The notes under the pieces are model-generated. The model searched no databases. It was not told where the DNA came from and saw only the letters and a program-made list of their open reading frames with translations. The translations under genes and the position numbers were made by a program. From contig JAQVFW010000002.1 in NCBI GenBank assembly GCA_028697015.1, forward strand, positions 5,287 to 69,286: a DNA stretch of 64,000 nucleotides, written 5' to 3'. The stretch comes from Minisyncoccota bacterium (GTDB lineage: Bacteria > Patescibacteriota > Minisyncoccia > Minisyncoccales > GWA2-38-27). Shown piece by piece: positions 1 through 18,933 of the stretch (its first letter is position 1; every line of letters begins with the position of its first letter).

Positions 1-1437
1 ACTGCCAAAGTTCCGGGCAGAGAAGTTTTTAACGAAATGCTCGGCAAAATTGATGGCGGTCTTCCTCACTCAATTGGTATTTTGGCGTGGGCTCCGGACA
101 GATTGTCCAGAAATTCCGTTGACGGCGGGCGGCTCATTTATTTGCTTGATACCGGAAAACTTGCGGGGTTGAAATTTCCGACTTTCGCGTTTGAAAATAC
201 CCCAAGCGGCAAATTTTTTCTTTCAATTGCTTTATCAAACGCGAAGTATTATGTGGACAATCTGTCCGAGAATGTTCGGCGAGGGAATAAAGCCAAACTG
301 CGGCGAGGCGAATGGCCCGGCCAAAAACCACTGGGATATGTGTATGACCATAGATTACGCAACATTGTACCAGAGCCGAAAGAAGCAAAAATTGTAAAAA
401 AGACTTTTGAGGAGTTTGCGACTGGAAAATATGGCCTCGCTTCCATTTCTCATCGCCTCGCCGAGTTTGGCATAAGAAGCTCAAACGGCAAGCCACGTTC
501 TAATTCCTCAATCTTCAATCTTTTAACGAATGAATTGTATATCGGCGTTATGCGTTGGAAAGACGAGCCGTTTGAGGGTTCGTACCAGCCGCTCATCACA
601 AAGCAATTGTTTGCGAAAGTGCAGGAAGTTTTGAAAGAAAGAGGCAAGCCGCGCAAGACAAGACAAAAGCATAATTTTCCATTTTGCGGATTATTCCGCT
701 GTTCTTGTGGCGCAATGTTCACAGCGCAATACGCAAAAGGAAATGGCGGACTTTACCGCTATTATAGATGTACAAAAAAACAAGGAAATTGCGCCGCCAA
801 GTACGTCCAAGAGCAGGACCTTGCGCGGCAACTTTTTGAAAAATCGCAAACAATTGCTTTGCCCACTGATTGGGCCAAAGAAATGTTGGAGTATTTGGAT
901 AAAAACGAAGAATTGGAAGCCCAATCAGTAGACGCTTTTGTCCAAGAGATAAATCAGAAAATAATTGTTGTTCAGGACAAGCTCGATAAACTGCTTGAAG
1001 GTTATTTAGATAATCTTATTGACGAGGAGACCTACAAGCATAAAAAGGAGGAGCTTGTTCAACAAAAAATCACCCTGAAAGGTGAAAAAAATACTCTTGG
1101 ACAAAAGCGAATGAGCGGCTGGATCGAACCAACCAGAAACTTCGTAAATACCTTGATTCAAGCGGGAAAAATCGCTTCACCGAAATTTCTTGCAGAAATT
1201 TCGGACTTGGTGAGAAAAATTGGAACGAACCGCCTCATTTCCGAAAAAATCGTTTCTTTTGATTTCGTCCCGCTGTTTGATTTTACGGCTTCATTTCTTG
1301 CGAGCCGCGCCGCGAGGCGCGGCGAGCAAACCTCTTTTTCCGCTTCCGAAAATTTGCAAAATCCTGTTTGGTGGGCGACGAAGGAGTCGAACCTTCCACC
1401 TCTTCTTTATCAGAGAAGCGTTCTACCGCTGAACTAG
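1..1437 (+). CDS. Large serine recombinase (resolvase/invertase family), 5' end truncated by window edge; annotated stop likely read-through into tRNA
   Basis: Frame open from nt 1. DRLSRN catalytic-domain motif, recombinase domain (GxxPxGY), zinc ribbon (CGLFRCSCG...YYRC...C) and C-terminal coiled coil. Visibly higher GC than surrounding genome. Confidence 0.8.
   Translation, partial: TAKVPGREVFNEMLGKIDGGLPHSIGILAWAPDRLSRNSVDGGRLIYLLDTGKLAGLKFPTFAFENTPSGKFFLSIALSNAKYYVDNLSENVRRGNKAKLRRGEWPGQKPLGYVYDHRLRNIVPEPKEAKIVKKTFEEFATGKYGLASISHRLAEFGIRSSNGKPRSNSSIFNLLTNELYIGVMRWKDEPFEGSYQPLITKQLFAKVQEVLKERGKPRKTRQKHNFPFCGLFRCSCGAMFTAQYAKGNGGLYRYYRCTKKQGNCAAKYVQEQDLARQLFEKSQTIALPTDWAKEMLEYLDKNEELEAQSVDAFVQEINQKIIVVQDKLDKLLEGYLDNLIDEETYKHKKEELVQQKITLKGEKNTLGQKRMSGWIEPTRNFVNTLIQAGKIASPKFLAEISDLVRKIGTNRLISEKIVSFDFVPLFDFTASFLASRAARRGEQTSFSASENLQNPVWWATKESNLPPLLYQRSVLPLN
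1304..1323. other. GC-only 8-bp hairpin with GNRA (GCGA) tetraloop, 45 nt from the tRNA-Ile 3' end and inside the recombinase ORF tail
   Basis: gccgcgcc-gcga-ggcgcggc perfect inverted repeat in a ~30% GC genome. Confidence 0.5.
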
Positions 1438-2072: not shown

Positions 2073-2290
2073 GAAGAAATTTTTCTCCAAAAATCCCCTT
2101 ATGTATGGCAGAAATAATTAAATAAGAAAATGCTTAAAAAAGAGCTTTCTTATTTAATTATTTTTTAATTTTAGTTCTTAAAAGTTGTTCTGACTTATAA
2201 ATAATCGAAATTTGAAGGTTCCTCGATCAATACCTCAGAGTTGAAAACAGAATTCTCGGTTTTCAACCAACGGTCGACACTTTTCTAAAA

Positions 2291-3777
<1,487 letters not shown>

Positions 3778-3990
3778 TTACATTAAAGTTAAACCCTAAT
3801 GTAAATAAAGTCAGAACAACTTTAAAAAACTAAAATGCTTGAATAAATAATTTAGGGACTTTTATTCAAGATTAATATTTTGTTTTCAAAGTACTTTCTA
3901 AAATAAACCCCGAAGATATTTAAGCATTAAACACCTTCGGGAGAAATCTTTTTGAATTATGTAGATTCTCTATTTCATACTGCTATCTTT

Positions 3991-4018
3991 AGTATATTTA
4001 TTTAATCTTTCTTGTCAA
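3991..4018 (-). promoter_or_regulatory. Candidate sigma70-type promoter for the 16S gene (-35 TTGACA, 16-nt spacer, -10 TATACT)
   Basis: Reverse complement of 4013..4018 is TTGACA. Reverse complement of 3991..3996 is TATACT. ~205 nt leader to the 16S 5' end. Confidence 0.35.
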
Positions 4019-4045
4019 GTTTTTAAGAAAAGAAAAAATGTGTAA

Positions 4046-4103
4046 TAAAAAACCCTGACAAGCCGCTTTCTTACAGTAAGAAAGCTGAAAGCTTGCCAGG
4101 GGG
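4046..4103 (-). terminator. Intrinsic terminator after the ParB-like gene (compound hairpin + U-run)
   Basis: Minus strand: CCCCCTGGCAAGC...nested GCTTTCTTA/TAAGAAAGC...GCTTGTCAGGG followed by TTTTTTATT. Confidence 0.5.
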
Positions 4104-4126
4104 CTTAGTGGCTTATTTAAAGAACT

Positions 4127-4924
4127 TTAATGACAAAGCGCCTCGAAACGCTTTTTCCAATCCGCTATTGCTCTGGATGCTCTTTTCTGAAGTTGCTCGA
4201 TATGAACGAATATTTCTCTGGCTTGCGACTCAGTGATATCGCCGTCCTCATATTTTTCAAGAATACTCCGCATCAGCGAAGCGTTCTTTTGACTTAAAGA
4301 TTTATGGCTTTTTGTAAGATTTCCCTGAATTTCGGGGATTCCTACCTTAAGTTTTTTCTTTCTTCCGAAAAGAACTTCTTTAACTTTTTCGGGTTCGACA
4401 TTATATTTTTCAGCAGCTTTTGTCACTGTTAATCCGCCTTCAGCAACGGCAACAACCGCTTTTTTGATTTTAAGGCGTGCCTGCTTTGACTGCACGCACT
4501 TGATATATTTTCTAACCAAACTGACTGGTAATCCCAACAGTTCGGCAATCCTTTTTTGCTTCTCTCCTTTTTCGATAAGAAGCATAACAGTATGCTCTGT
4601 GTCTTCCTGAGAAGGTGGCATTGAACCGCCCGAATTTTGCCTGTAGGCATAAGAGATCATTTCGGCCTCGTCTTCGAATTGAAGAACTTTGACCTTGATT
4701 TCTTTCAGGTTATTTAGCTCATAGGCTTCTTTGCGGTGTCTGCCGTCAACAACGGGACAAACACCGTTTGTACTTTCAGCAATTTCTATAGGGTCTTTCA
4801 TTTCGACCCCATTTTCAATAAGCTCTGCAAGATACAAAACATGTTCCTGATTGAGCTCTTTTCTTACAAAAAGATTTGTCTGAAGTTCAGACAAATTAAC
4901 AATTTTAGTTCCTTTTGCTCTCAT
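4127..4924 (-). CDS. ParB/Srx-like nuclease domain protein with HTH domains
   Basis: N-terminal ParB-like motif (PVVDGRHRKEAY), then HTH segments (QKRIAELLGLPVSLVRKYI; LTVTKAAEKYNV). GAGGAG RBS before the ATG. GC-richer than genome. Confidence 0.55.
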   Translation of the reverse strand: MRAKGTKIVNLSELQTNLFVRKELNQEHVLYLAELIENGVEMKDPIEIAESTNGVCPVVDGRHRKEAYELNNLKEIKVKVLQFEDEAEMISYAYRQNSGGSMPPSQEDTEHTVMLLIEKGEKQKRIAELLGLPVSLVRKYIKCVQSKQARLKIKKAVVAVAEGGLTVTKAAEKYNVEPEKVKEVLFGRKKKLKVGIPEIQGNLTKSHKSLSQKNASLMRSILEKYEDGDITESQAREIFVHIEQLQKRASRAIADWKKRFEALCH

Positions 4925-4947
4925 GCTTTATCTCCTCGTTTCTGATG

Positions 4948-5184
4948 CTAAATACTGTCGTAGGGCTGGAAAAACCTGCCGCTATAGGCGCGCCATCCGG
5001 CGCGTTTTTTTCTGATATCGGACAATATTACCAAAATTCCCGGTTCGGGAAAATCTTTTTCTTGCCAAACTTTTTTATCCAAAGAAAAAGTCACAAGACC
5101 AAGGTCTTCTGAACGGGCAACGGCATAAGGGCCGTGATGTCCGTTTATGACGATTTTTTCAACGATTGCCTGGTATTCTAACAT
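4948..5184 (-). CDS. Hypothetical small protein (78 aa), translationally coupled in the HTH/ParB operon
   Basis: Only 3 nt from the upstream gene stop. No recognisable domain. Contains an internal plus-strand GC hairpin + T7. Confidence 0.3.
   Translation of the reverse strand: MLEYQAIVEKIVINGHHGPYAVARSEDLGLVTFSLDKKVWQEKDFPEPGILVILSDIRKKRAGWRAYSGRFFQPYDSI
4989..5011 (+). other. Plus-strand terminator-like element (CGCGCC-atcc-GGCGCG + T7) embedded in the small minus-strand ORF
   Basis: Perfect 6-bp GC stem, 4-nt loop, immediately followed by TTTTTTT on the plus strand. Confidence 0.35.
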
Positions 5185-5187
5185 TTC

Positions 5188-5892
5188 TTATCCTTTCTGA
5201 TTTTCAATAATTTTTTTTGTCAATCTTGCGCTTAAAGAGTTTAAGTGCGACGAAAGGCGGAAAATAATTCCGGTAACCTCCCCAATGTCTTCTGGCTCTT
5301 CAAAAGCGTTTTCTTGCAAAAGATAAATCAGCGATTCCATTATTTTAATCGTAGCTTTTTCTTTATAATTTGAATTTTCTGTTTCAAATGTTTCCTTTCC
5401 AAAATTACCGGGCCTAATGTCGGCCTCAAAAATCCTTCTTTTTTCCTCTTTTTTTTTATTAAGTTCTTCTTTCTTTTCTTTCCAAATTTCCCACATTTTC
5501 TGGGATTTTTCTTTTCCCGGTTCTCCGTTTCCTTGAAGAACCTGGTAAAGGGAAGAGGCCGTGCTATATCCGATAGCATCTGCTGCCTCCTTTCCTGAAA
5601 AAAAACCAAAGGCGATAAGTTCAATAAACCCCCTTTGGACTTTTGGCATCCTTTCCAGTTCAATAATACTATACCCAATAGCGTCAAGAAAACACATCAG
5701 TTTCATTAAGGTCTCCCCTACGGGAAGCCCTTCTGAAGAGAGCCATCTTTTTACCGTGCTTGTCGAAACAGAACAAAAATCAGCTATAACAATAAGAGAA
5801 TTTTTTTGTGTTTTTTTAGAAAAAAGAAGAGAGTAATTTTGAAGACATTCTTCTGTATGCCCTCTAAAAATTTCAACTCGTTCATCTTGCAT
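5188..5892 (-). CDS. DNA-binding protein with two tandem HTH-like segments (phage/plasmid-type regulator-like)
   Basis: Segments LIVIADFCSVSTSTVKRWL and FIELIAFGFFSGKEAADAIGYSTASSLYQVL resemble HTH motifs. Lys/Glu-rich middle. First gene after tRNA-Thr. Confidence 0.45.
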   Translation of the reverse strand: MQDERVEIFRGHTEECLQNYSLLFSKKTQKNSLIVIADFCSVSTSTVKRWLSSEGLPVGETLMKLMCFLDAIGYSIIELERMPKVQRGFIELIAFGFFSGKEAADAIGYSTASSLYQVLQGNGEPGKEKSQKMWEIWKEKKEELNKKKEEKRRIFEADIRPGNFGKETFETENSNYKEKATIKIMESLIYLLQENAFEEPEDIGEVTGIIFRLSSHLNSLSARLTKKIIENQKG

Positions 5893-5987
5893 CTAGTATT
5901 CCTTTTTCAAAGAACCGTTTTTTCGGAAAGCCACTCTTTCCGATCTAGAGATTGTATAACATAAGAAAAATATTATGTCAATTTATG

Positions 5988-6059
5988 AGCCAGCGGTCGG
6001 ATTTGAACCGACGACCTACTGTTTACAAAACAGTTGCTCTGCCACTGAGCTACGCTGGC
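5988..6059 (-). tRNA. tRNA-Thr (anticodon TGT), CCA not encoded
   Basis: Reverse complement GCCAGCG-TA-GCTC-AGTGGCA-GAGC-A-ACTGT-TTTGTAA-ACAGT-AGGTC-GTCGG-TTCAAAT-CCGAC-CGCTGGC-T folds as a canonical cloverleaf. Confidence 0.8.
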
Positions 6060-7873: not shown

Positions 7874-8140
7874 ATGAAAAAGACAATACATCCTAAATAT
7901 TTTGATAAAGCGAAGGTTCATTGCGTTTGCGGCAATAACTTTACAGTAGGATCCACAAAAGAATTTCTCGAGGTAGAAGTTTGTTCGGCTTGCCATCCCT
8001 TTTTCACAGGCAAAGAAAAAATTATGGATACAATGGGCCGAGTGGAAAAGTTTAGAAAACGCCTTGAAAAAAAAGAAGAGCCGAAAAAGAAAAAAGAGCC
8101 AAAACAAAAAAAAGAAAAACAAAGCAAAAAACTTGCTTAA
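7874..8140 (+). CDS. rpmE: 50S ribosomal protein L31 (type A, Zn-ribbon) with Lys-rich C-terminal extension
   Basis: MKKTIHPKY...CVCGNNF...[21 protein letters not shown]. Confidence 0.9.
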
Positions 8141-8185
8141 TTGTTTGCTTTTTTTACTTTTAAACTTATTTCCTAAAAGGAAACT

Positions 8186-9235
8186 ATGTCAGAAATTGAA
8201 TCCTTAAGAAAGGAATACAATGATATTTTAAATCAACTCGGCAATCCTGAGTTGATTTCTGACTGGAAAAAATTTGAAGATCTTTCCAAAAAGAAAAAAA
8301 AGCTGGAAAATATCATAGAAAAAAAAGAAGCTATTCTTCAAATAGAAAAGCAGATTGAAGAGAATAAGGCCATAATATCTTCTGAAGATATGGAACTTTT
8401 AACCTTGGCGGAAGCGGAAATAGGCACTTTAAGTCAAAAGAAAAGAGAAATTGAAAAAGAATTGAAAGATTTCTTAGAGGAAGAAAATTCTTCTGTCGAT
8501 CTTAATTCCGTTATTGTTGAAATAAGGGCTGGAACCGGTGGAGATGAAGCGGCTTTGTTTGCCGGAGACCTATTTAGAGCGTATCTAAAATATTGCGCTA
8601 AAAAAAACTGGTCTCATAAGGTCCTCGATTCAAACTCTACGACTATCGGAGGATTTAAAGAAGTTACTTTTGAAATAAAAGGAAATAATGTTTTTTCTCT
8701 TATGGAAAACGAGGGAGGAGTTCACAGAGTTCAAAGAATTCCGGAAACCGAAAAATCAGGAAGAGTGCATACGTCAACGGCAACGGTAGCCGTACTTCCC
8801 AAGCCGAAAGAGAAGAAAATTAATATAAGAACTGACGATTTAAAAATTGATTTCTTTAGAGCTTCGGGAGCAGGAGGTCAAAATGTCAACAAAAGAGAAA
8901 CTGCTGTAAGAATTACTCATTTACCATCAGGGGTTGTTGTTGTTTCTCAGACAGAGAGAAATCAGCTTCAAAATAAAGAAAACGCCCTATCTATTCTTGG
9001 AGCTAAGATAATGGAACAAAAAAGAAAACAAGAACAAAGCAGTGTTTCAAATCAAAGAAACAGTCAAATTGGTCTTGCTAAAAGAGTAGAAAAAATTAAA
9101 ACGTATAATTTTCCTCAAGACCGCCTCACTGACCACAGAATAAAAAAAAGCTGGCATGGCCTTCAAAGGATAATGGATGGCGATCTTGACGAGATTATAG
9201 AAACAACAAAAAAAGAGCTTCAGCTTATAGAATAA
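8186..9235 (+). CDS. prfA: Peptide chain release factor 1
   Basis: GGQ motif (SGAGGQNVNK) and PxT-type tripeptide region (QRIPETEKSGRVHTSTATVAV). Confidence 0.9.
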   Translation: MSEIESLRKEYNDILNQLGNPELISDWKKFEDLSKKKKKLENIIEKKEAILQIEKQIEENKAIISSEDMELLTLAEAEIGTLSQKKREIEKELKDFLEEENSSVDLNSVIVEIRAGTGGDEAALFAGDLFRAYLKYCAKKNWSHKVLDSNSTTIGGFKEVTFEIKGNNVFSLMENEGGVHRVQRIPETEKSGRVHTSTATVAVLPKPKEKKINIRTDDLKIDFFRASGAGGQNVNKRETAVRITHLPSGVVVVSQTERNQLQNKENALSILGAKIMEQKRKQEQSSVSNQRNSQIGLAKRVEKIKTYNFPQDRLTDHRIKKSWHGLQRIMDGDLDEIIETTKKELQLIE

Positions 9236-10679: not shown

Positions 10680-11283
10680 CTTCTTTCTCTTTTTTAATCT
10701 TCTCAACGGATTCTACGTCTTCTTCAACCGGTTTTTCAAGTTCTTCTTCAACTTTTTGAGGCGGCTGAACGTTTGCAACTACTTCATCCGGCTCACGGAG
10801 TATTTTTACTCCTTCTCCTACAAAAAGATCTTTTATCGTTATTTCTTTTTCAAAATCTGTCAGAACGCTGACATCAACTTTAATTTCATGAGGAAGTTTT
10901 TCAGGCAGAGCTTTTACTTCAACTTCCTGTATTCCTTTTACAATTGTTCCTCCGAGATTTTTAACAGCTTCCGATTCTCCAAAAAAGACTATCGGTACCT
11001 GGGCTTCAACTTCTTTGTCCAGTATTGGCTGGTAAAAATCCACGTGAATGGGCTCCCCTGTCAAAGAATCTAAAGCTACTTCATGGATTAAGACCGGATG
11101 TTTTTTATCATCAATCAAAAGAGAAACAAGAGTGCTTTCCCCTGCTTTTTCATAAATATCATTGAATTCTTTCAAGTCAATTTCTATAGAAGATGTTTCA
11201 ATTTTTGGTCCGTATACAACTGCAGGGATACTGACTCCGTCTCTTTTTACTTTCTCTCTCTTTTTTGCATTTAAGGTAATCAT
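10651..11283 (-). CDS. rplY: 50S ribosomal protein L25/general stress protein Ctc (long form with acidic tail)
   Basis: MITLNAKKREKVKRDGVSIPAVVYGPK... L25 N-terminal domain. The 5' 93 nt of this gene are duplicated at 13870..13962. Confidence 0.85.
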   Translation of the reverse strand: MITLNAKKREKVKRDGVSIPAVVYGPKIETSSIEIDLKEFNDIYEKAGESTLVSLLIDDKKHPVLIHEVALDSLTGEPIHVDFYQPILDKEVEAQVPIVFFGESEAVKNLGGTIVKGIQEVEVKALPEKLPHEIKVDVSVLTDFEKEITIKDLFVGEGVKILREPDEVVANVQPPQKVEEELEKPVEEDVESVEKIKKEKEDEEKEPENS

Positions 11284-11318
11284 GATTTTAATTTGTGGTT
11301 CAAGTTAATAATGGTTTT

Positions 11319-11537
11319 TTATTCAACAATACTGATAATTTCAACCGGACACATATCAGCAGCGTCTTTTGCGCAAGATAATTCTTCAATATCAAGCTCT
11401 TCTTCCTTTTTATCATTGACTCTTTTTTTCCCGACCAGCTGGGCTTTTTCATCATCTCCTTTTTGAAAATATCTAGGACAATTTGACCAGCAAGAGCCGC
11501 AACTTATGCACTTTTCTCTATCAAGAATAATTTTCAT
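11319..11537 (-). CDS. 4Fe-4S single-cluster ferredoxin (copy 1)
   Basis: CISCGSCWSNCP ... MCPVE cysteine pattern, 72 aa. Confidence 0.7.
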   Translation of the reverse strand: MKIILDREKCISCGSCWSNCPRYFQKGDDEKAQLVGKKRVNDKKEEELDIEELSCAKDAADMCPVEIISIVE

Positions 11538-11557
11538 GTTGGTTCTTTAATTTTTTA

Positions 11558-11998
11558 TTATTTGATTTCAAAGCTATTGGAATAAATCCAAGAATCTTCG
11601 CTGAATAATTCTTCTTTAGCACAATTATTGCAATATGGAATAGCCAAGCGGTACGTGCCGTTCCCAAAAAGATCAAACATATCTATCTCGGCTTCAAATG
11701 CTTTAATTGATTTTTTAGGAATACAAACCTCTATAATGTCTTCTTTTGAGCAATGAATATATTCTGCTCTTTCCCATACTCCTTCTATCTCCATTTCTAT
11801 AAAATAAGGATTGCAGGAGGAAAAACAAACATTCTTTAAAGAGCTATTTATTATTTTTAAGGCCACAAACTGTCCTTTTTCATAACTGTTTTTGCTTGTT
11901 ATAACCTCTACTTCTCCTCTATATTTTGTAATAAAAGTCACCAAAGCGAAAATAAAGAGTATTGGGACTATAATGGCAATAATTAAAAGCCTCTTCAT
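11558..11998 (-). CDS. Hypothetical signal-anchored Cys-rich extracytoplasmic protein (copy 1)
   Basis: N-terminal TM/signal (LLIIAIIVPILFIFALVTFI), 8 Cys. No known domain. Confidence 0.4.
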   Translation of the reverse strand: MKRLLIIAIIVPILFIFALVTFITKYRGEVEVITSKNSYEKGQFVALKIINSSLKNVCFSSCNPYFIEMEIEGVWERAEYIHCSKEDIIEVCIPKKSIKAFEAEIDMFDLFGNGTYRLAIPYCNNCAKEELFSEDSWIYSNSFEIK

Positions 11999-12012
11999 CG
12001 TTTTCTATTCTA

Positions 12013-12840
12013 CTATATTTTTTTAAAGCTGTGAAGTGTTTTAATCTTTTCAATAACCCTTTTTTCTAGGACTTTTTCAGTTTTTTCAAGTATTTTATAG
12101 GGTTTAATCTCCTTTGAAGAAAGTTCTTTTTTTAAAGATTCTTTCCACACATTTCGAAGTTCCGTATTAATATTCGTTTTAACTATCCCTCTTTTTATAC
12201 AGTTTTTAATATCTTCATTCTTTAATCCCGAAGCGCCGTGCAAAACAAGAAAAATCTCAGTTTTTTTTCTTATTTCAGAAAGAAGATTAAGGTCAAGAGA
12301 TGGCATTTTGACATATACCCCGTGAACGTTACCAATAGAGATTGCTAAAAGATCAACATTTGTTTCTTTGACAAATCTTTCAACCTTAGAAAGAGAAGTA
12401 AAATCTTTTTTAGAAACAGAAGATTTATCCTTTATAACTCCAAGTTCTCCTTCAACAAGAACTCCTCTTTTTTTAGCATAACTTACCACTTCTTTTGTTC
12501 TTTTTATATTTTCATCAAAGGGAAGAAGAGAACCGTCATAATGGACAGAATCATATCCTATATCTACGGCTGTTTTTATAAAATCAAAGTTTTTTCCATG
12601 GTCTAAATTAAGAAAGACAGGAACATTATATTCTAAATTAATAATCTCTTTCATTACAAATGCTTCTTTTAATCCAAAAAACTTCCCTTCCCCTTCTGAG
12701 GTTCCTAATATTACAGGGCTTTCCATTTTTTTTGCCGCCCTGATTGTTGATTTCATTTGCTCAATAGTTGAAAAATTAAACTGGCCTACGGCAAATTTTT
12801 CTTTTTTCGCTTTTTCAAAATAAGAATGAAGGGATTTCAT
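12013..12840 (-). CDS. Class II fructose/tagatose-bisphosphate aldolase (FbaA/GatY family) (copy 1)
   Basis: FLVLHGASG zinc-aldolase motif. ~275 aa like the GatY/KbaY short class II aldolases. Confidence 0.75.
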   Translation of the reverse strand: MKSLHSYFEKAKKEKFAVGQFNFSTIEQMKSTIRAAKKMESPVILGTSEGEGKFFGLKEAFVMKEIINLEYNVPVFLNLDHGKNFDFIKTAVDIGYDSVHYDGSLLPFDENIKRTKEVVSYAKKRGVLVEGELGVIKDKSSVSKKDFTSLSKVERFVKETNVDLLAISIGNVHGVYVKMPSLDLNLLSEIRKKTEIFLVLHGASGLKNEDIKNCIKRGIVKTNINTELRNVWKESLKKELSSKEIKPYKILEKTEKVLEKRVIEKIKTLHSFKKI

Positions 12841-12858
12841 AAATAAGTATTTTTAATT

Positions 12859-13824
12859 TTAGAATTTTGACACTTTTACTTTGATTTTTTTAAAACTTTG
12901 GTTTTTTCTAAGAAGTCCGTTTTTTGCTCCCCAAAAACCGATAGTTGAAGAAGCATTAGCTGTTCCTCTTTGAATTGATTTTACTATGTCTTTTGAATAA
13001 ATGTATTCAGAAATAAACCCTGAAGAAAAAGCGTCTCCTGCTCCGGTTCTGTCTAATACCTTTGACTTTAAAGTTTTTGCTTCATAAAGAAAAGAGTTAT
13101 TTAAAACAACTGATCCCAAAGGGCCTTTTGTTATAACAATTATCCCTTTGTAAAACTCACTTATTCTTTTAAGAGCGCTTTTTTCGTCTTTATAAAGAAC
13201 ATTGGCAAGCATTGAAGCTTCTTCTTGATTTAATATTAAAATATCAATTTTCTTGATTATCTTTTTGATATTTTTTAAAGAAAGCTGGGAATTTCCGGGA
13301 TTTGCCGCAATTTTCATTCCTTTTTTTATTCCATAATCAACAAGAGAATTAAATTTCAAAGAGGCCTTTCCTGAAAGAGGGGCGAAATAAAGCCATTTTG
13401 CAAGCGGTAAGAAAATATTTTCTTTTCCCATTATTTCAGAAGCTCCCCTGTAAACCAATATTGTCCTGTCTTTGTCTTTGACGTTTAAAACAATTGACTG
13501 ATTAGTTTTCTTTTCCTTTGTTTTTTTAACCAAAGAAATGTTAACCTTCAGCTGTTTTAATTCTTTTAGAATATCTTCTCCTGCTTCGTCTTCTCCCACT
13601 TTTCCAAAATAAGCGGTTTTTAATCCCATATTTGCAAAAGTAACCGCGCAATTGGTTCCTCCTCCTCCGGTAAAATGATAAATATTTTCTACGTCTATCT
13701 TTGAACCTAAAGAAAGGTAAATCCCCTCTTTTGTTACGAGAGTTTTTTTAGTCGCAGATTTCAAATTCTTGCTTTTTAAAAAAGTGTCTCTTGAAGCAGA
13801 ACCGAATGTGATAATATCAAACAT
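12859..13824 (-). CDS. PfkB-family carbohydrate kinase (candidate phosphofructokinase/tagatose-6-P kinase) (copy 1)
   Basis: GGGGTNCA N-terminal GG motif and DRTGAGDAF PfkB signature 2. Adjacent to class II aldolase. Confidence 0.75.
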   Translation of the reverse strand: MFDIITFGSASRDTFLKSKNLKSATKKTLVTKEGIYLSLGSKIDVENIYHFTGGGGTNCAVTFANMGLKTAYFGKVGEDEAGEDILKELKQLKVNISLVKKTKEKKTNQSIVLNVKDKDRTILVYRGASEIMGKENIFLPLAKWLYFAPLSGKASLKFNSLVDYGIKKGMKIAANPGNSQLSLKNIKKIIKKIDILILNQEEASMLANVLYKDEKSALKRISEFYKGIIVITKGPLGSVVLNNSFLYEAKTLKSKVLDRTGAGDAFSSGFISEYIYSKDIVKSIQRGTANASSTIGFWGAKNGLLRKNQSFKKIKVKVSKF

Positions 13825-13830
13825 ATAATG

Positions 13831-13962
13831 CTATTTCTTTAATTTATCTTCTTTTTTGGCTACAAGAAGAGATGTTTCAATTTTTGGTCCGTATACAACT
13901 GCAGGGATACTGACTCCGTCTCTTTTTACTTTCTCTCTCTTTTTTGCATTTAAGGTAATCAT
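13831..13962 (-). pseudogene. Chimeric junction mini-ORF: rplY 5' fragment (31 codons) fused to last 12 codons of ppsA, created by the tandem duplication
   Basis: Translates MITLNAKKREKVKRDGVSIPAVVYGPKIETS + LLVAKKEDKLKK*. First part identical to the rplY N-terminus, second part identical to the ppsA C-terminus. Confidence 0.6.
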
Positions 13963-13997
13963 GATTTTAATTTGTGGTTCAAGTTAATAATGGTTTT

Positions 13998-14216
13998 TTA
14001 TTCAACAATACTGATAATTTCAACCGGACACATATCAGCAGCGTCTTTTGCGCAAGATAATTCTTCAATATCAAGCTCTTCTTCCTTTTTATCATTGACT
14101 CTTTTTTTCCCGACCAGCTGGGCTTTTTCATCATCTCCTTTTTGAAAATATCTAGGACAATTTGACCAGCAAGAGCCGCAACTTATGCACTTTTCTCTAT
14201 CAAGAATAATTTTCAT
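13998..14216 (-). CDS. 4Fe-4S ferredoxin (copy 2, identical)
   Basis: Identical translation to 11319..11537. Confidence 0.7.
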   Translation of the reverse strand: MKIILDREKCISCGSCWSNCPRYFQKGDDEKAQLVGKKRVNDKKEEELDIEELSCAKDAADMCPVEIISIVE

Positions 14217-14236
14217 GTTGGTTCTTTAATTTTTTA

Positions 14237-14677
14237 TTATTTGATTTCAAAGCTATTGGAATAAATCCAAGAATCTTCGCTGAATAATTCTTCTTTAGCA
14301 CAATTATTGCAATATGGAATAGCCAAGCGGTACGTGCCGTTCCCAAAAAGATCAAACATATCTATCTCGGCTTCAAATGCTTTAATTGATTTTTTAGGAA
14401 TACAAACCTCTATAATGTCTTCTTTTGAGCAATGAATATATTCTGCTCTTTCCCATACTCCTTCTATCTCCATTTCTATAAAATAAGGATTGCAGGAGGA
14501 AAAACAAACATTCTTTAAAGAGCTATTTATTATTTTTAAGGCCACAAACTGTCCTTTTTCATAACTGTTTTTGCTTGTTATAACCTCTACTTCTCCTCTA
14601 TATTTTGTAATAAAAGTCACCAAAGCGAAAATAAAGAGTATTGGGACTATAATGGCAATAATTAAAAGCCTCTTCAT
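14237..14677 (-). CDS. Hypothetical Cys-rich extracytoplasmic protein (copy 2, identical)
   Basis: Identical to 11558..11998. Confidence 0.4.
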   Translation of the reverse strand: MKRLLIIAIIVPILFIFALVTFITKYRGEVEVITSKNSYEKGQFVALKIINSSLKNVCFSSCNPYFIEMEIEGVWERAEYIHCSKEDIIEVCIPKKSIKAFEAEIDMFDLFGNGTYRLAIPYCNNCAKEELFSEDSWIYSNSFEIK

Positions 14678-14691
14678 CGTTTTCTATTCTA

Positions 14692-15519
14692 CTATATTTT
14701 TTTAAAGCTGTGAAGTGTTTTAATCTTTTCAATAACCCTTTTTTCTAGGACTTTTTCAGTTTTTTCAAGTATTTTATAGGGTTTAATCTCCTTTGAAGAA
14801 AGTTCTTTTTTTAAAGATTCTTTCCACACATTTCGAAGTTCCGTATTAATATTCGTTTTAACTATCCCTCTTTTTATACAGTTTTTAATATCTTCATTCT
14901 TTAATCCCGAAGCGCCGTGCAAAACAAGAAAAATCTCAGTTTTTTTTCTTATTTCAGAAAGAAGATTAAGGTCAAGAGATGGCATTTTGACATATACCCC
15001 GTGAACGTTACCAATAGAGATTGCTAAAAGATCAACATTTGTTTCTTTGACAAATCTTTCAACCTTAGAAAGAGAAGTAAAATCTTTTTTAGAAACAGAA
15101 GATTTATCCTTTATAACTCCAAGTTCTCCTTCAACAAGAACTCCTCTTTTTTTAGCATAACTTACCACTTCTTTTGTTCTTTTTATATTTTCATCAAAGG
15201 GAAGAAGAGAACCGTCATAATGGACAGAATCATATCCTATATCTACGGCTGTTTTTATAAAATCAAAGTTTTTTCCATGGTCTAAATTAAGAAAGACAGG
15301 AACATTATATTCTAAATTAATAATCTCTTTCATTACAAATGCTTCTTTTAATCCAAAAAACTTCCCTTCCCCTTCTGAGGTTCCTAATATTACAGGGCTT
15401 TCCATTTTTTTTGCCGCCCTGATTGTTGATTTCATTTGCTCAATAGTTGAAAAATTAAACTGGCCTACGGCAAATTTTTCTTTTTTCGCTTTTTCAAAAT
15501 AAGAATGAAGGGATTTCAT
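14692..15519 (-). CDS. Class II fructose/tagatose-bisphosphate aldolase (copy 2, identical)
   Basis: Identical to 12013..12840. Confidence 0.75.
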   Translation of the reverse strand: MKSLHSYFEKAKKEKFAVGQFNFSTIEQMKSTIRAAKKMESPVILGTSEGEGKFFGLKEAFVMKEIINLEYNVPVFLNLDHGKNFDFIKTAVDIGYDSVHYDGSLLPFDENIKRTKEVVSYAKKRGVLVEGELGVIKDKSSVSKKDFTSLSKVERFVKETNVDLLAISIGNVHGVYVKMPSLDLNLLSEIRKKTEIFLVLHGASGLKNEDIKNCIKRGIVKTNINTELRNVWKESLKKELSSKEIKPYKILEKTEKVLEKRVIEKIKTLHSFKKI

Positions 15520-15537
15520 AAATAAGTATTTTTAATT

Positions 15538-16503
15538 TTAGAATTTTGACACTTTTACTTTGATTTTTTTAAAACTTTGGTTTTTTCTAAGAAGTCCGTT
15601 TTTTGCTCCCCAAAAACCGATAGTTGAAGAAGCATTAGCTGTTCCTCTTTGAATTGATTTTACTATGTCTTTTGAATAAATGTATTCAGAAATAAACCCT
15701 GAAGAAAAAGCGTCTCCTGCTCCGGTTCTGTCTAATACCTTTGACTTTAAAGTTTTTGCTTCATAAAGAAAAGAGTTATTTAAAACAACTGATCCCAAAG
15801 GGCCTTTTGTTATAACAATTATCCCTTTGTAAAACTCACTTATTCTTTTAAGAGCGCTTTTTTCGTCTTTATAAAGAACATTGGCAAGCATTGAAGCTTC
15901 TTCTTGATTTAATATTAAAATATCAATTTTCTTGATTATCTTTTTGATATTTTTTAAAGAAAGCTGGGAATTTCCGGGATTTGCCGCAATTTTCATTCCT
16001 TTTTTTATTCCATAATCAACAAGAGAATTAAATTTCAAAGAGGCCTTTCCTGAAAGAGGGGCGAAATAAAGCCATTTTGCAAGCGGTAAGAAAATATTTT
16101 CTTTTCCCATTATTTCAGAAGCTCCCCTGTAAACCAATATTGTCCTGTCTTTGTCTTTGACGTTTAAAACAATTGACTGATTAGTTTTCTTTTCCTTTGT
16201 TTTTTTAACCAAAGAAATGTTAACCTTCAGCTGTTTTAATTCTTTTAGAATATCTTCTCCTGCTTCGTCTTCTCCCACTTTTCCAAAATAAGCGGTTTTT
16301 AATCCCATATTTGCAAAAGTAACCGCGCAATTGGTTCCTCCTCCTCCGGTAAAATGATAAATATTTTCTACGTCTATCTTTGAACCTAAAGAAAGGTAAA
16401 TCCCCTCTTTTGTTACGAGAGTTTTTTTAGTCGCAGATTTTAAATTCTTGCTTTTTAAAAAAGTGTCTCTTGAAGCAGAACCGAATGTGATAATATCAAA
16501 CAT
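15538..16503 (-). CDS. PfkB-family carbohydrate kinase (copy 2, identical protein)
   Basis: Identical to 12859..13824. Single-nt difference 3 nt upstream of the start codon. Confidence 0.75.
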   Translation of the reverse strand: MFDIITFGSASRDTFLKSKNLKSATKKTLVTKEGIYLSLGSKIDVENIYHFTGGGGTNCAVTFANMGLKTAYFGKVGEDEAGEDILKELKQLKVNISLVKKTKEKKTNQSIVLNVKDKDRTILVYRGASEIMGKENIFLPLAKWLYFAPLSGKASLKFNSLVDYGIKKGMKIAANPGNSQLSLKNIKKIIKKIDILILNQEEASMLANVLYKDEKSALKRISEFYKGIIVITKGPLGSVVLNNSFLYEAKTLKSKVLDRTGAGDAFSSGFISEYIYSKDIVKSIQRGTANASSTIGFWGAKNGLLRKNQSFKKIKVKVSKF

Positions 16504-16509
16504 ATTATG

Positions 16510-18933
16510 CTATTTCTTTAATTTATCTTCTTTTTTGGCTACAAGAAGATGGGTTTTAATAATCATATTGGGATTTATTGAAATGCTTTCAATCCCCTCT
16601 TCAACCAGAAAATCTGCAAAATCAGAATAAGTAGAAGGAGCTTCTCCGCATATTCCAATATATTTGTTTCTTTTTTTGCAAATTTTAATAACTTCTCCAA
16701 TTATCTTTTTGACCGCTTTGTTTCTTTCATCTCCGATATAGGATATTCTGCCATTGTCTCTATCTAGTCCCAATGTAAGTTGAGCAAGATCATTGCTGCC
16801 AATACTAAAGCCGTCAAAAATTGACAAAAAATCATCCGCTAAGATAATATTTGATGGAATTTCACACATCATATAAACTTTAAAATTATCTTCATTAAGG
16901 CCCTCTTTCCTTATTATTTCCATAACTTTTTTTCCTTCTTCAACCGTTCTGCAGAAAGGAACCATTACATTTACGTTTTTTAAGCCGAAAACATTTCTTA
17001 CTCTTTTTATGGCTTGGCATTCCATTTTAAAGGCCGGCATGAAATTTTTATCAATATATCGGCAAGCCCCTCTGAATCCAAGCATCGGATTTGATTCTTC
17101 GTTTTCAAAAATTTCACCACCGATAAGATTCTTGTATTCATTGGTTTTAAAGTCCGAAAATCTGACAATAACCTCTTTTGGATAAAAAGCAGCTCCAATT
17201 TTGGCGATTCCTTCTGCCAGTTCTTTTATAAAAAACTCTTTCTTGTCTTTATGTTCTACGGTAATTTCTTTAATCTGCTTTATTATTTTCTGAATTTCTG
17301 AATTTGAAAGAAAAATGTTTTTCCTTATTTCAGATTTAGGATTCTTTATTTGTTTGTAATGATACAAAGCCAAAGGATGGACTCTTACTTTTTCTGCGAT
17401 AATAAATTCTTCTCTTGCAAGACCAACTCCCTGATTTGGCAAAAAAGAAGATCTAAATGCTATTTCAGGAGCTCCAATATTAACCATGATTTTGGTCTTA
17501 ATTTTAGGAAAACTGCCAAGATTCTGCCTTTTTACTTTATAGGAAATTTTACCTTTAAAAATCCTTCCGTTTAATCCTTCTGTACAATCAACTGTGATTT
17601 CTTCTCCGTCTTTAAGAATATCTGTAGCTTTATGAGTTCCAACAATAGCCGGAATTCCAAGTTCTCTTGCGACAATCGCGGCATGGCAACTTTTTCCTCC
17701 TTCATTTGTTACAATAGCACTTGCAATACGCATAATAGGCAGCCAGTCAGGGTCCGTCATTTTAGTCACTAAAACTTCTCCTTTCTCAAAATCTTTCATT
17801 TTGGAAATTTCCCTTACAATCTTAACTTTTCCAATTCCAATTTTTTCCCCTACGGCAATTCCCGTAAGAAATGGCTTCTTTTTAGTGTTCAGTTGATATT
17901 CTTCATAAAAGCTTGCTGTTTTTGAGGCATGAACTGTTTCCGGTCTTGATTGTACTATGAAAAGCTCTCCCGTTTTCCCATCTTTTGCCCATTCAATATC
18001 TTGAGGCATCCATTTGCCGGCTCTTTTTGAATAGTGGTTTTCTATAATCACTGCCCACCTTGCAAGGGTCAATATTTCTTTTTCTGTAAGAGAAAATTTT
18101 AATTGGTCTTTAATGCTGACTTTTTTCTCTTTCAGTCCCCCCTTTGTAGAATATTCATATTTTAAATGTTTTCTTCCAAGGTTTTTTGTTATTATAGAAT
18201 CATGGCCTTTTTCAAGAGTCGGCTTAAAAACATAAAATTCATCGGGAGTCACTTTTCCTTTGACTATCATTTCTCCTATTCCAAAAATAGAATTTATTAA
18301 AACAACATTCTTAAACCCGGTTTCAGTATCAAGGGTAAACATAATTCCTGAAGAAGCGAGATCTGAACGGATCATTTTTAAAACGCCAACGGAAAGGGCA
18401 AACTTCAAATGGGATATTTTCTTCTCTTCCCTATAGGCGATAACTCTGTCGTTAAAAGTTGAAGCAATACATTTTTTAACAACGGAAAGCAAGTTCTTTG
18501 TGCCTCTTACGTTTAAAAATGTTTCAAATTGGCCAGCAAAAGAAGCGTTAGGCATGTCTTCACAGACAGCGGAAGATCTTACAGCGACATCGTCTCCTTT
18601 TAGTTTTTCATACGCATTTATAATATCTTCTTCCAATTCTTTGGAAAAATAGCCTTTTCTAATTCTTTCTCTTGCTTTCTTTCCAAACTCCTGCAAATCT
18701 TCTATTTTTTTCAGGTCGTATTTTTTAATCAGCGCTTTTAATTCTTTATCTATGCCATTTACTTTCATAAAATCCAAATAGGCTTTTGTCGTAATAGCAA
18801 AGCCCTCCGGAATATTTATGCCTTCCTTTAAAAAAGCGCCATACATTTCACCAAGAGAAGCGTTTTTCCCTCCAACTTGCAAAATATTATCGTAACCTAT
18901 TTCATCAAACCATAAAATGTTTTTTTCTTTCAT
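16510..18933 (-). CDS. ppsA: Phosphoenolpyruvate synthase (pyruvate, water dikinase)
   Basis: N-terminal ATP-grasp GGKNASLGEM, phosphohistidine domain TNEGGKSCHAAIVARELGIPAIVG, C-terminal PEP-utilising domain. 807 aa. Confidence 0.85.
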   Translation of the reverse strand: MKEKNILWFDEIGYDNILQVGGKNASLGEMYGAFLKEGINIPEGFAITTKAYLDFMKVNGIDKELKALIKKYDLKKIEDLQEFGKKARERIRKGYFSKELEEDIINAYEKLKGDDVAVRSSAVCEDMPNASFAGQFETFLNVRGTKNLLSVVKKCIASTFNDRVIAYREEKKISHLKFALSVGVLKMIRSDLASSGIMFTLDTETGFKNVVLINSIFGIGEMIVKGKVTPDEFYVFKPTLEKGHDSIITKNLGRKHLKYEYSTKGGLKEKKVSIKDQLKFSLTEKEILTLARWAVIIENHYSKRAGKWMPQDIEWAKDGKTGELFIVQSRPETVHASKTASFYEEYQLNTKKKPFLTGIAVGEKIGIGKVKIVREISKMKDFEKGEVLVTKMTDPDWLPIMRIASAIVTNEGGKSCHAAIVARELGIPAIVGTHKATDILKDGEEITVDCTEGLNGRIFKGKISYKVKRQNLGSFPKIKTKIMVNIGAPEIAFRSSFLPNQGVGLAREEFIIAEKVRVHPLALYHYKQIKNPKSEIRKNIFLSNSEIQKIIKQIKEITVEHKDKKEFFIKELAEGIAKIGAAFYPKEVIVRFSDFKTNEYKNLIGGEIFENEESNPMLGFRGACRYIDKNFMPAFKMECQAIKRVRNVFGLKNVNVMVPFCRTVEEGKKVMEIIRKEGLNEDNFKVYMMCEIPSNIILADDFLSIFDGFSIGSNDLAQLTLGLDRDNGRISYIGDERNKAVKKIIGEVIKICKKRNKYIGICGEAPSTYSDFADFLVEEGIESISINPNMIIKTHLLVAKKEDKLKK

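Follow-up and report, generated by a model that had tools for sequence, protein, structure and literature searches.

The 64,000-nt stretch of contig JAQVFW010000002.1 of a Minisyncoccota bacterium analysed here (the window, to which all coordinates refer unless another locus is named) carries, between the gene of tRNA-Thr and the promoter of the 16S rRNA, three co-oriented genes, A, B and C, which form an acquired and insulated accessory cassette whose core, the product of gene C, is an orphan DNA-binding protein of the ParB family. The genes follow each other in the order A-B-C, separated by spacers of only 3 nt (A/B) and 23 nt (B/C), and all the features of the cassette are located on the minus strand. 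This layout had been described in a previous sequence-only reading of the same DNA as a tightly coupled three-gene operon closed by a strong terminator ahead of the 16S promoter, and that description proved right in all the details that could be checked, including the raised G+C content and the sole GAGGAG ribosome-binding site. From upstream to downstream, the locus comprises the following features:

6059..5987, minus strand: tRNA-Thr(tgt), identified by ARAGORN and by Rfam (75 bits); upstream boundary, owned by the host
5981..5953, minus strand: promoter of the cassette, sigma-70-type, read from the sequence; TTGACA at 5981..5976, a 17-nt spacer and TG-extended TATACA at 5958..5953
5942..5905, minus strand: 5' leader of gene A; hairpin CGGAAAG/CTTTCCG at 5942..5924, followed by the box TCTTTGAAA at 5913..5905
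5892..5188, minus strand: gene A, 234 amino acids
5184..4948, minus strand: gene B, 78 amino acids
5007..4986, no strand assigned: GC-rich palindrome in gene B, formed by the RAGWRA codons CGC GCC GGA TGG CGC GCC
4924..4127, minus strand: gene C, 265 amino acids, with GAGGAG ahead of the start
4101..4047, minus strand: intrinsic terminator closing the cassette; bulged stem of 21 bp at 4101..4053 and U-run at 4052..4047
4018..3991, minus strand: promoter of the 16S rRNA, TTGACA-16-TATACT, matching 11 of 12 consensus positions; downstream boundary, owned by the host
3776..2289, minus strand: 16S rRNA, identified by Rfam

The promoter-like sequence, TTGACA-17-TATACA with its upstream TG, lies within the 94 nt that separate tRNA-Thr from gene A; it was left unlisted by the consensus scanner because the final base of its second hexamer is an A. 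The box TCTTTGAAA sits just ahead of the start region of gene A. At the other end, the terminator hairpin displays a folding free energy of -30.4 kcal/mol (z -4.4), and none of 200 shuffled sequences folds equally well.

The insertion of the cassette is documented by a comparison with the relatives of this genome. A metagenome search anchored on the neighbouring elongation factor EF-Ts (Tsf) returned 80 loci, and the order rpsB-tsf-(orf104)-tRNA-Thr-16S is kept in relatives showing 50-65% Tsf identity. In 17 Tsf-anchored relatives, the tRNA-Thr-to-16S gap measures 115-630 nt and is devoid of A, B and C, against 2,210 nt in the window. Among the Tsf-anchored loci, the cassette occupies this site only in contigs from the same species, which share the arrangement of the window. 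In eight other relatives, this position is occupied by unrelated inserts measuring 1-4.9 kb, and the peptides read from these inserts resemble RelE/RelB-like, AbrB-like and ArsR-like proteins, pilins and others. Since relatives exhibit either an empty site or an unrelated insert, the tRNA-Thr/16S spacer is a variable spot, for which the A-B-C trio represents one of several alternative cargoes.

The composition of the trio similarly departs from that of its host. The G+C content reaches 0.362 for A, 0.439 for B and 0.401 for C, as compared to 0.331 +/- 0.031 for the 64 other open reading frames (ORFs) of the window, and the G+C content at the third codon position (GC3) amounts to 0.302, 0.443 and 0.361, respectively, versus 0.260 +/- 0.031, which places A, B and C at ranks 3, 1 and 2 among the 67 ORFs of the window. 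When the 67 ORF starts were checked, GAGGAG was found upstream of gene C alone. The 3' end of the host 16S rRNA (2289-2300) reads GGAUCAUUUCUUUU and is devoid of the canonical CCUCC anti-Shine-Dalgarno sequence, in line with the occurrence of a Shine-Dalgarno motif upstream of almost no ORF of the window; the cassettes of other genomes display GAAAGGAGG ahead of gene A. Gene C keeps a GAGGAG motif in a host whose 16S rRNA has lost the matching CCUCC, which marks this translation signal as foreign. Taken together, the empty conserved junction of the relatives, the atypical GC3 and the atypical ribosome-binding site uphold the proposal of a foreign, inserted module put forward in the sequence-only reading, and the opposite situation, that of an operon kept at the same position across the lineage with a native composition, does not correspond to what was found. 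The locus offers a clean example of how an insertion can be shown in an uncultivated lineage, by associating an empty junction in relatives with foreign translation signals.

By contrast, the idea of an integration through the tRNA could not be sustained. A direct repeat of the 3' end of tRNA-Thr, such as would constitute a tRNA-derived attachment (att) repeat, was searched for and nothing was found to link 5987-6059 to 3777-4130; the cassette contains no integrase or recombinase, and the serine recombinase encoded at 37..1437 is part of a separate element located at tRNA-Ile, outside the cassette. Elsewhere, the cassette shows no preference for tRNA neighbours: about 10 of 46 genome loci possess a tRNA within 1.5 kb, a proportion close to chance by a rough estimate from the typical tRNA density, and none of the 46 has 16S or tRNA-Thr nearby. 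The suggested plasmid derivation fared no better, the plasmid search reported below having given no evidence of such an origin.

Protein C consists of a ParB/Srx N-terminal domain, followed by two helix-turn-helix (HTH) units (residues ~105-190) and by a conserved helical C-terminus containing the sequence EDGD. It is matched over residues 21-235 by PHROG 1033, a ParB-like partition protein (E 6e-13), and its central part by the Pfam families HTH_23 (8.9e-8, residues 111-146) and HTH_28 (3.8e-7), HTH_psq being recognized in 15 of 24 members of the family. A stretch G61-R62-H63-R64, which corresponds to the GxxR sequence of the Box II P-motif, is invariant in 24 diverse C members and was aligned by HMMER onto the GERR sequence of Helicobacter pylori ParB and onto that of a ParB-family chain. 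In a remote-homology search against the Protein Data Bank (PDB), the profile of the N-domain retrieved ParB (4umk), a ParB-family protein (7bnr) and sulfiredoxin on top, accounting for five of the six best matches, with E values of only 0.05-0.9; a precomputed match to PF02195 exists for an identical protein (P0001). The C-terminal residues ~190-265, conserved in EDGD, R251 and R259, gave weak matches to helical proteins only, and the full-length profile of C recovered generic HTH domains only among the solved structures. The ParB/Srx fold with HTHs attributed to C in the sequence-only reading is therefore well in keeping with the PHROG match, the N-domain profile and HTH_23.

Canonical ParB proteins carry the sequence ENLQR as Box III; the corresponding position of C reads AYRQNSGGSMPP, with a consensus (R/K)xNxGG, and is not canonical. 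The ParA-binding motif LG-R/K-GL, as defined in PMC12704722, is absent from C, whose N-terminus MRAKGTKIVNLSELQTNLFVRKEL contains no LGxGL. Together with the absence of any ParA ATPase gene in the cassette, and of any ParA-like family from the 25 Pfam families found most often in the 149 flanking proteins scanned, these features agree with the previous statement that the locus is not a standard partition locus. The word nuclease, which had also been attached to C, comes from the family name only: neither a nuclease catalytic domain nor a catalytic motif was detected by the Pfam and PHROG scans, in which C weakly matched DNA-binding modules from homing and HNH endonucleases, and the GxxR motifs seem to fit a nucleoside triphosphate (NTP)-binding ParB-CTPase fold at least as well as a nuclease. 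In sequence and architecture, C is an orphan ParB-like protein of the ParB/Srx (ParB-CTPase-fold) superfamily.

Orphan ParB proteins are often tied to mobile elements and possess a divergent Box III, their nucleotide specificity being unpredictable from sequence or from AlphaFold3 (PMC12704722). Protein C resembles the proteins described there by the succession of a ParB/Srx N-domain with GxxR, an HTH domain and a helical C-terminal region, by its location outside a parAB operon, by the lack of LG-R/K-GL and the divergence of Box III, and by its links to horizontal transfer and phages. It differs from them by its marginal similarity to any characterised member (best PDB match E 0.047), by a Box II which reads DGRHR instead of GERRxR and HTH units of the HTH_23 and psq types, and by the company of a tandem-HTH protein and, usually, of an OB-fold (oligonucleotide/oligosaccharide-binding) protein, a combination which is not described for any ParB-like system.

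These two partners are the products of genes A and B. Protein A gave weak HTH matches only (Pfam HTH_3, 0.003; PHROG transcriptional regulator, 1e-4). Its AlphaFold2 model (pLDDT 83) consists of two XRE-like HTH units, a long K/E-rich helix (residues 127-159) and a C-terminal helical hairpin, and the Foldseek matches of this model, all weak, comprise XRE-repressors, antitoxins and phage or island repressors. In the alignment of A, C40 and C67 are invariant and H12 and C16 nearly so, a pattern which suggests a metal or redox site. Protein B is devoid of any match in family scans, and none of its 76 homologues bears a name. Its AlphaFold2 model (pLDDT 96) is a five-stranded β-barrel of the OB / cold-shock-like fold, for which the best matches among PDB and viral structures are cold-shock proteins, IF1/S1 and single-stranded DNA-binding proteins (TM 0.6-0.7, E about 1e-2). 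On the basis of this model, B probably binds single-stranded nucleic acid. In two loci (L027 and L028), A and B are fused in a single 328-amino-acid polypeptide with B at the C-terminus of A, which is direct evidence that A and B act together. C thus appears as an orphan ParB with a new partner set, made of a tandem-HTH/coiled-coil protein and an OB fold which are sometimes fused.

The distribution of the cassette is patchy and mainly confined to Patescibacteria, and identical proteins carry database names that point to Candidatus Paceibacterota/Pacebacteria, a part of this group. A scan of the species-representative genomes of GTDB, based on peptide patterns which limit its reach, identified 46 loci distributed in many lineages of the Candidate Phyla Radiation (CPR), about 38 of which hold the A-B-C order. 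B is missing between A and C in four loci (L001, L032, L037 and the viral contig L047), C stands alone in a few distant loci, and gene A is present in 42 of the 57 loci with C, matches at the level of hidden Markov models (HMMs) included. The neighbours of L047 give no convincing phage signature. Homologues of C of the same length form more than 120 clusters with 38-64% identity in many CPR lineages, and a profile search for C retrieved 342 cluster representatives (50% identity) at E<=1e-30 and 2,333 at E<=1e-3.

Depending on the genome, the cassette is flanked by different and ordinary housekeeping genes, such as rnc, smc, nusB and helicases. Mobile-element genes do not recur beside it, Xer-like integrases accounting for only 3 of the 149 flanking proteins. 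In nearly all the related loci, a consensus promoter TTGACA...TGnTAnnnT with an extended -10 occurs upstream of gene A, and a strong hairpin followed by a T-run occurs downstream of C in nearly every one of them. Because the A-B-C order and its own promoter and terminator recur while the neighbours vary, the trio and its signals constitute a conserved unit. In five syntenic genomes, where the cassette adjoins smc, the flanking proteins are 72-81% identical, as compared to 37-49% for A, 60-77% for B and 50-64% for C; in one of these genomes, the cassette stands on the opposite side of rnc. The similarities among cassettes are mosaic. A cassette so much more diverged than its flanks, combined with this mosaic similarity, argues for a fast evolution or for a repeated, host-independent exchange.

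Among the possible cis elements, the box TTTGA[AC]A, located just upstream of the ribosome-binding site of gene A, is present in the ~60 nt preceding 20 out of 39 A genes, as compared to only 9 of 484 other ORFs from the same loci, and it could be an autoregulatory site of A. As a genome-wide site, TTTGAAA was discarded, being without enrichment in the window, where its recurrence in the 16S leader could be due to chance. A conserved RNA hairpin in the leader was likewise rejected: hairpins can be seen by eye in many loci, with folding energies that are indistinguishable from those of control intergenic regions. Two GC-rich palindromes in gene B coincide with the invariant peptides RAGWRA and GR..PS and with the rare codons CGY, GCC, CGG and CCG. 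The potential for pairing of the one at 4986..5007 persists in 82% of cells, and covariation does not exceed that of shuffles; the pairing is largely explained by the conserved codons and column composition, so that they were not retained as parS-like or RNA elements.

Two side observations concern the same regions. At many starts of gene A (L001, L003, L004, L007, L013-L015, L017, L020, L021, L024, L031 and L033), a GTG start is preceded by AT, which generates the sequence ATGTGA with an out-of-frame ATG and an immediate TGA; the copy of the window starts with a plain ATG. Tandem repeats with 7- and 14-nt units, TTAGCC(G/T)TTAG..., occur directly past the C terminator in two Uhrbacteria loci (L002, 1438-1499; L005, 6866-6908) and were not seen in the other loci; they might be iterated binding sites.

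As regards function, the explanation tentatively preferred here, with a probability that stops a little short of even, is that this horizontally acquired cassette would work as a KorB/KorA-like, NTP-gated DNA-binding switch. A single insulated transcription unit, made of a promoter, a leader, A, B, C and a terminator, was inserted into the tRNA-Thr/16S spacer of a Paceibacteria-type (CPR) genome. C would dimerise via its helical C-terminus and recognise a specific DNA site through its central HTHs, its ParB/Srx N-domain with the GxxR P-motif serving as a switch or clamp on DNA gated by nucleotide triphosphate. The tandem XRE-type HTH and coiled coil of A, together with the OB-fold protein B, would form a second nucleic-acid-binding component, which is predicted to cooperate physically with C and probably to autoregulate the operon via the conserved leader. 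The closest analogy would be gene silencing by KorB, whose ParB-type clamp is locked by one of two small HTH proteins, KorA or TrbA, instead of a ParABS segregation system; Noc and BisD are further analogues.

The KorB-KorA/TrbA system of plasmid RK2 (PMC11790492, PMC13584720) offers a precedent for the pairing of a ParB-type clamp and an HTH protein, and the cassette resembles it by the association of a ParB-family protein with a smaller HTH partner, by a regulation that has no need for ParA and by its nature of an autoregulated module on horizontally moving DNA, autoregulation being predicted in the present case. The differences reside in A, a 234-amino-acid protein containing a coiled coil and a pair of HTH units and showing no sequence relationship to either KorA or TrbA, in the extra OB-fold component, and in the chromosomal location of the cassette in CPR bacteria, devoid of a plasmid backbone and of IncC/ParA.

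The other ParB-like operon to be considered is that of the TIGR-Tas systems, the only published CPR-linked one found in the literature, whose tasParB-tasA operons were reported from phages and from parasitic bacteria including CPR (PMC12045711). In both kinds of loci, a ParB-like gene belongs to a short operon that is conserved while its flanks vary, but the cassette possesses neither a Nop-domain Tas protein nor a guide array. No match to the Nop domain was obtained for A or B with Pfam and Foldseek, no TIGR or stem-loop array was detected beside the cassette with Tandem Repeats Finder in the window and in loci L001-L057, and the motif DGRHR is absent from the supplements of PMC12045711; an identity with TIGR-Tas/tasParB is excluded accordingly.

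Several points weigh against the KorB/KorA-like switch. The ParB assignment of the N-domain is weak, since PF02195 is matched by 6 of 23 members, at E>=0.026, and E 0.047 is the lowest value obtained against the PDB. As read from the alignment, Box III is deprived of the catalytic Glu of canonical ParB. A role for an OB fold is without precedent in KorAB-like systems, and a conserved parS-like palindrome was not found in the non-coding flanks. Finally, the patchy distribution, the fast divergence and the toxin-antitoxin-like genes found at the same spot in relatives would fit a conflict system equally well.

Such a conflict system, in the form of a tripartite toxin-antitoxin, abortive-infection or defence module, is the main rival, which we take as a possible but rather unlikely explanation. 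C would then be an effector of the ParB/Srx fold, either a nuclease or an NTPase, aimed at DNA by its HTHs, with A as an XRE-type antitoxin or repressor and B as an OB-fold sensor of foreign single-stranded nucleic acid. The small, autonomous and tightly coupled operon with its XRE-like first gene, the rarity of the cassette, its mosaic copies, the RelE/RelB-like, AbrB-like and ArsR-like small genes inserted at the same spot in relatives and the antitoxins and phage or island repressors among the weak Foldseek matches of A all speak in its favour. No PADLOC model matches A, B or C, however: in PADLOC-DB v2, A and B were without match and C obtained a single insignificant one (E 0.013), and the cassette corresponds to no known defence system. 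In addition, C exhibits the full architecture of site recognition of ParB, with an N-terminal domain, HTHs and dimerisation helices, unlike a compact toxin, and its nuclease activity is putative only. B, which is missing in the four loci mentioned above and fused to A elsewhere, is therefore no indispensable antitoxin. Toxin-antitoxin operons of the omega-epsilon-zeta type have three components, with a separate regulator. The cassette recalls them by its three short and tightly coupled genes under one promoter, with a DNA-binding regulator first, and by its patchy distribution in variable genomic spots. It is related to them neither in sequence nor in fold, its largest protein has a site-specific DNA-binding architecture, and its middle gene can be lacking or joined to the first.

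A broader reading, which is speculative and looks doubtful to us, would make of the trio a mobile system of a new kind in ultra-small bacteria, serving in conflict or in silencing. There, an orphan ParB-fold NTP switch would be steered by an XRE-HTH/OB partner able to sense single-stranded nucleic acid, for example that of DNA which invades or replicates, leading to the clamping, silencing or cutting of specific DNA, and it would be kin to the solo ParB-like genes which behave as selfish insertions in phage replication genes. If true, a new partner logic, ParB with HTH and OB but without ParA, would be added to the ParB-CTPase family. ParB-type CTP/NTP switches are increasingly recognised as general DNA clamps beyond chromosome segregation, and the characterised orphans KorB, Noc, VirB and BisD each revealed a new regulatory principle. 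Gene regulation, mobile DNA and defence are poorly known in Patescibacteria, the main host group of the cassette, which with its 1.8 kb is small enough for direct tests in a heterologous host.

The third possibility, a remnant of the maintenance or immunity region of a prophage or plasmid (phage-plasmid), consisting of a repressor and a ParB-like partition or early-region protein after the loss of everything else, appears improbable. Relatives of C with 30-43% identity do occur in 11 IMG/VR contigs, where they adjoin replication genes encoding a polymerase, a helicase, an exonuclease or a clamp-loader-like ATPase, and a tyrosine integrase is encoded close to one of them. Elements equipped with large serine recombinases also integrate about 2.5 kb away from the cassette, at tRNA-Ile. 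Against such an origin, about 40 genomes contain the trio with the same boundaries and without any further phage or plasmid gene beside it, so that the trio itself is the unit kept by selection, and its three reading frames are all intact and conserved. The viral relatives other than L047 are devoid of A and B even at the HMM level, relatives of C were not found in the GenBank phages, and the single plasmid match, a RuvC annotation on a cyanobacterial plasmid with 29% identity over 43% of C, is uninformative.

A selfish homing-type element, in which C would be a site-specific endonuclease cutting empty sites and thereby promoting the copying of the cassette, is quite improbable. The most suggestive case comes from the viral contig L048 (6458-10477), where the DNA polymerase gene is split in two ORFs covering positions 545-829 and 838-1232 of PHROG 17, and where a solo C-like ParB-family gene (7983-8789) and a 119-amino-acid ORF stand exactly between the two polymerase halves. 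This placement is typical of selfish endonuclease genes and represents a single case, no further gene splitting having been encountered among the 11 viral loci. The weak matches of C to homing and HNH endonuclease modules, the displacement of the cassette without an integrase and its position on different sides of rnc within one syntenic clade point in the same direction. Homing retains one target site, whereas the insertion sites in CPR genomes are mutually unrelated, and no catalytic nuclease motif was identified in C.

A native and vertically inherited housekeeping operon, devoted for example to ParA-independent chromosome organisation or SMC loading in CPR bacteria, is very improbable and largely refuted by presence/absence: although C keeps a constant length and 40-64% identity in many CPR lineages, and the cassette is located on the chromosome, in contigs reaching 520 kb, and stands beside smc in five genomes, the conserved site is empty of the cassette in all the relatives of the lineage, just 46 loci came out of the pattern-limited GTDB scan, the composition and the ribosome-binding site are atypical for the host, and, in the clade where it adjoins smc, the cassette has diverged much further than its flanks.

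Several additional observations were made on the host genome and its relatives, starting with the tRNA-Ile region. The large serine recombinase of the window (37-1437; Resolvase, Recombinase and Zn-ribbon domains, GC3 0.45) is cut by the start of the window and ends inside tRNA-Ile (1369-1443), to which it is antisense, and the homology with sister-strain contigs stops exactly at 1368. At the same spot (37-1443 in the window, 13613-15163 in L058 and 12539-12704 in L064), one sister strain possesses a different serine recombinase (39% identity), and another a tRNA-Ala and no recombinase. Owing to this differing recombinase content among sister strains, the rRNA operon seems to offer different elements an integration site on the 3' side of its tRNA-Ile. 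Both tRNA-Ala and 23S are absent from the window. Beside the recombinase site, a block which follows the rRNA region and contains tRNA synthetase, SAM_HAT_N and PPDK_N-like genes is inverted in one sister-strain contig with respect to another (L059, 13313-18108; L058, 15745-20540).

The rRNA operon also contains, between 16S and tRNA-Ile, a 180-amino-acid ORF (1450-1992) with an aminoacyl-tRNA editing domain (tRNA_edit, 1.4e-18), in an arrangement shared by the relative L094. The window further harbours a perfect tandem duplication with a period of 2,679 bp (11191-16548), which comprises a PfkB kinase, a fructose-bisphosphate aldolase and a 146-amino-acid ORF; the first 300 nt, which were checked, are 100% identical, the sister-strain contigs are single-copy, and the duplication may be real or an assembly artefact.

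Insertions and introns in 16S are known for CPR bacteria. In eight relatives (L072, L086, L094, L096, L097, L098, L108 and L117), 16S aligns in pieces separated by gaps of 0.2-1 kb, which suggests insertions or introns inside this gene. Finally, in L104 (2961-3105), where 16S is not adjacent, a 94%-identical copy of the 3' 50 nt of tRNA-Thr occurs 20 nt past this tRNA and resembles the att-type duplication that an integrative element leaves behind.

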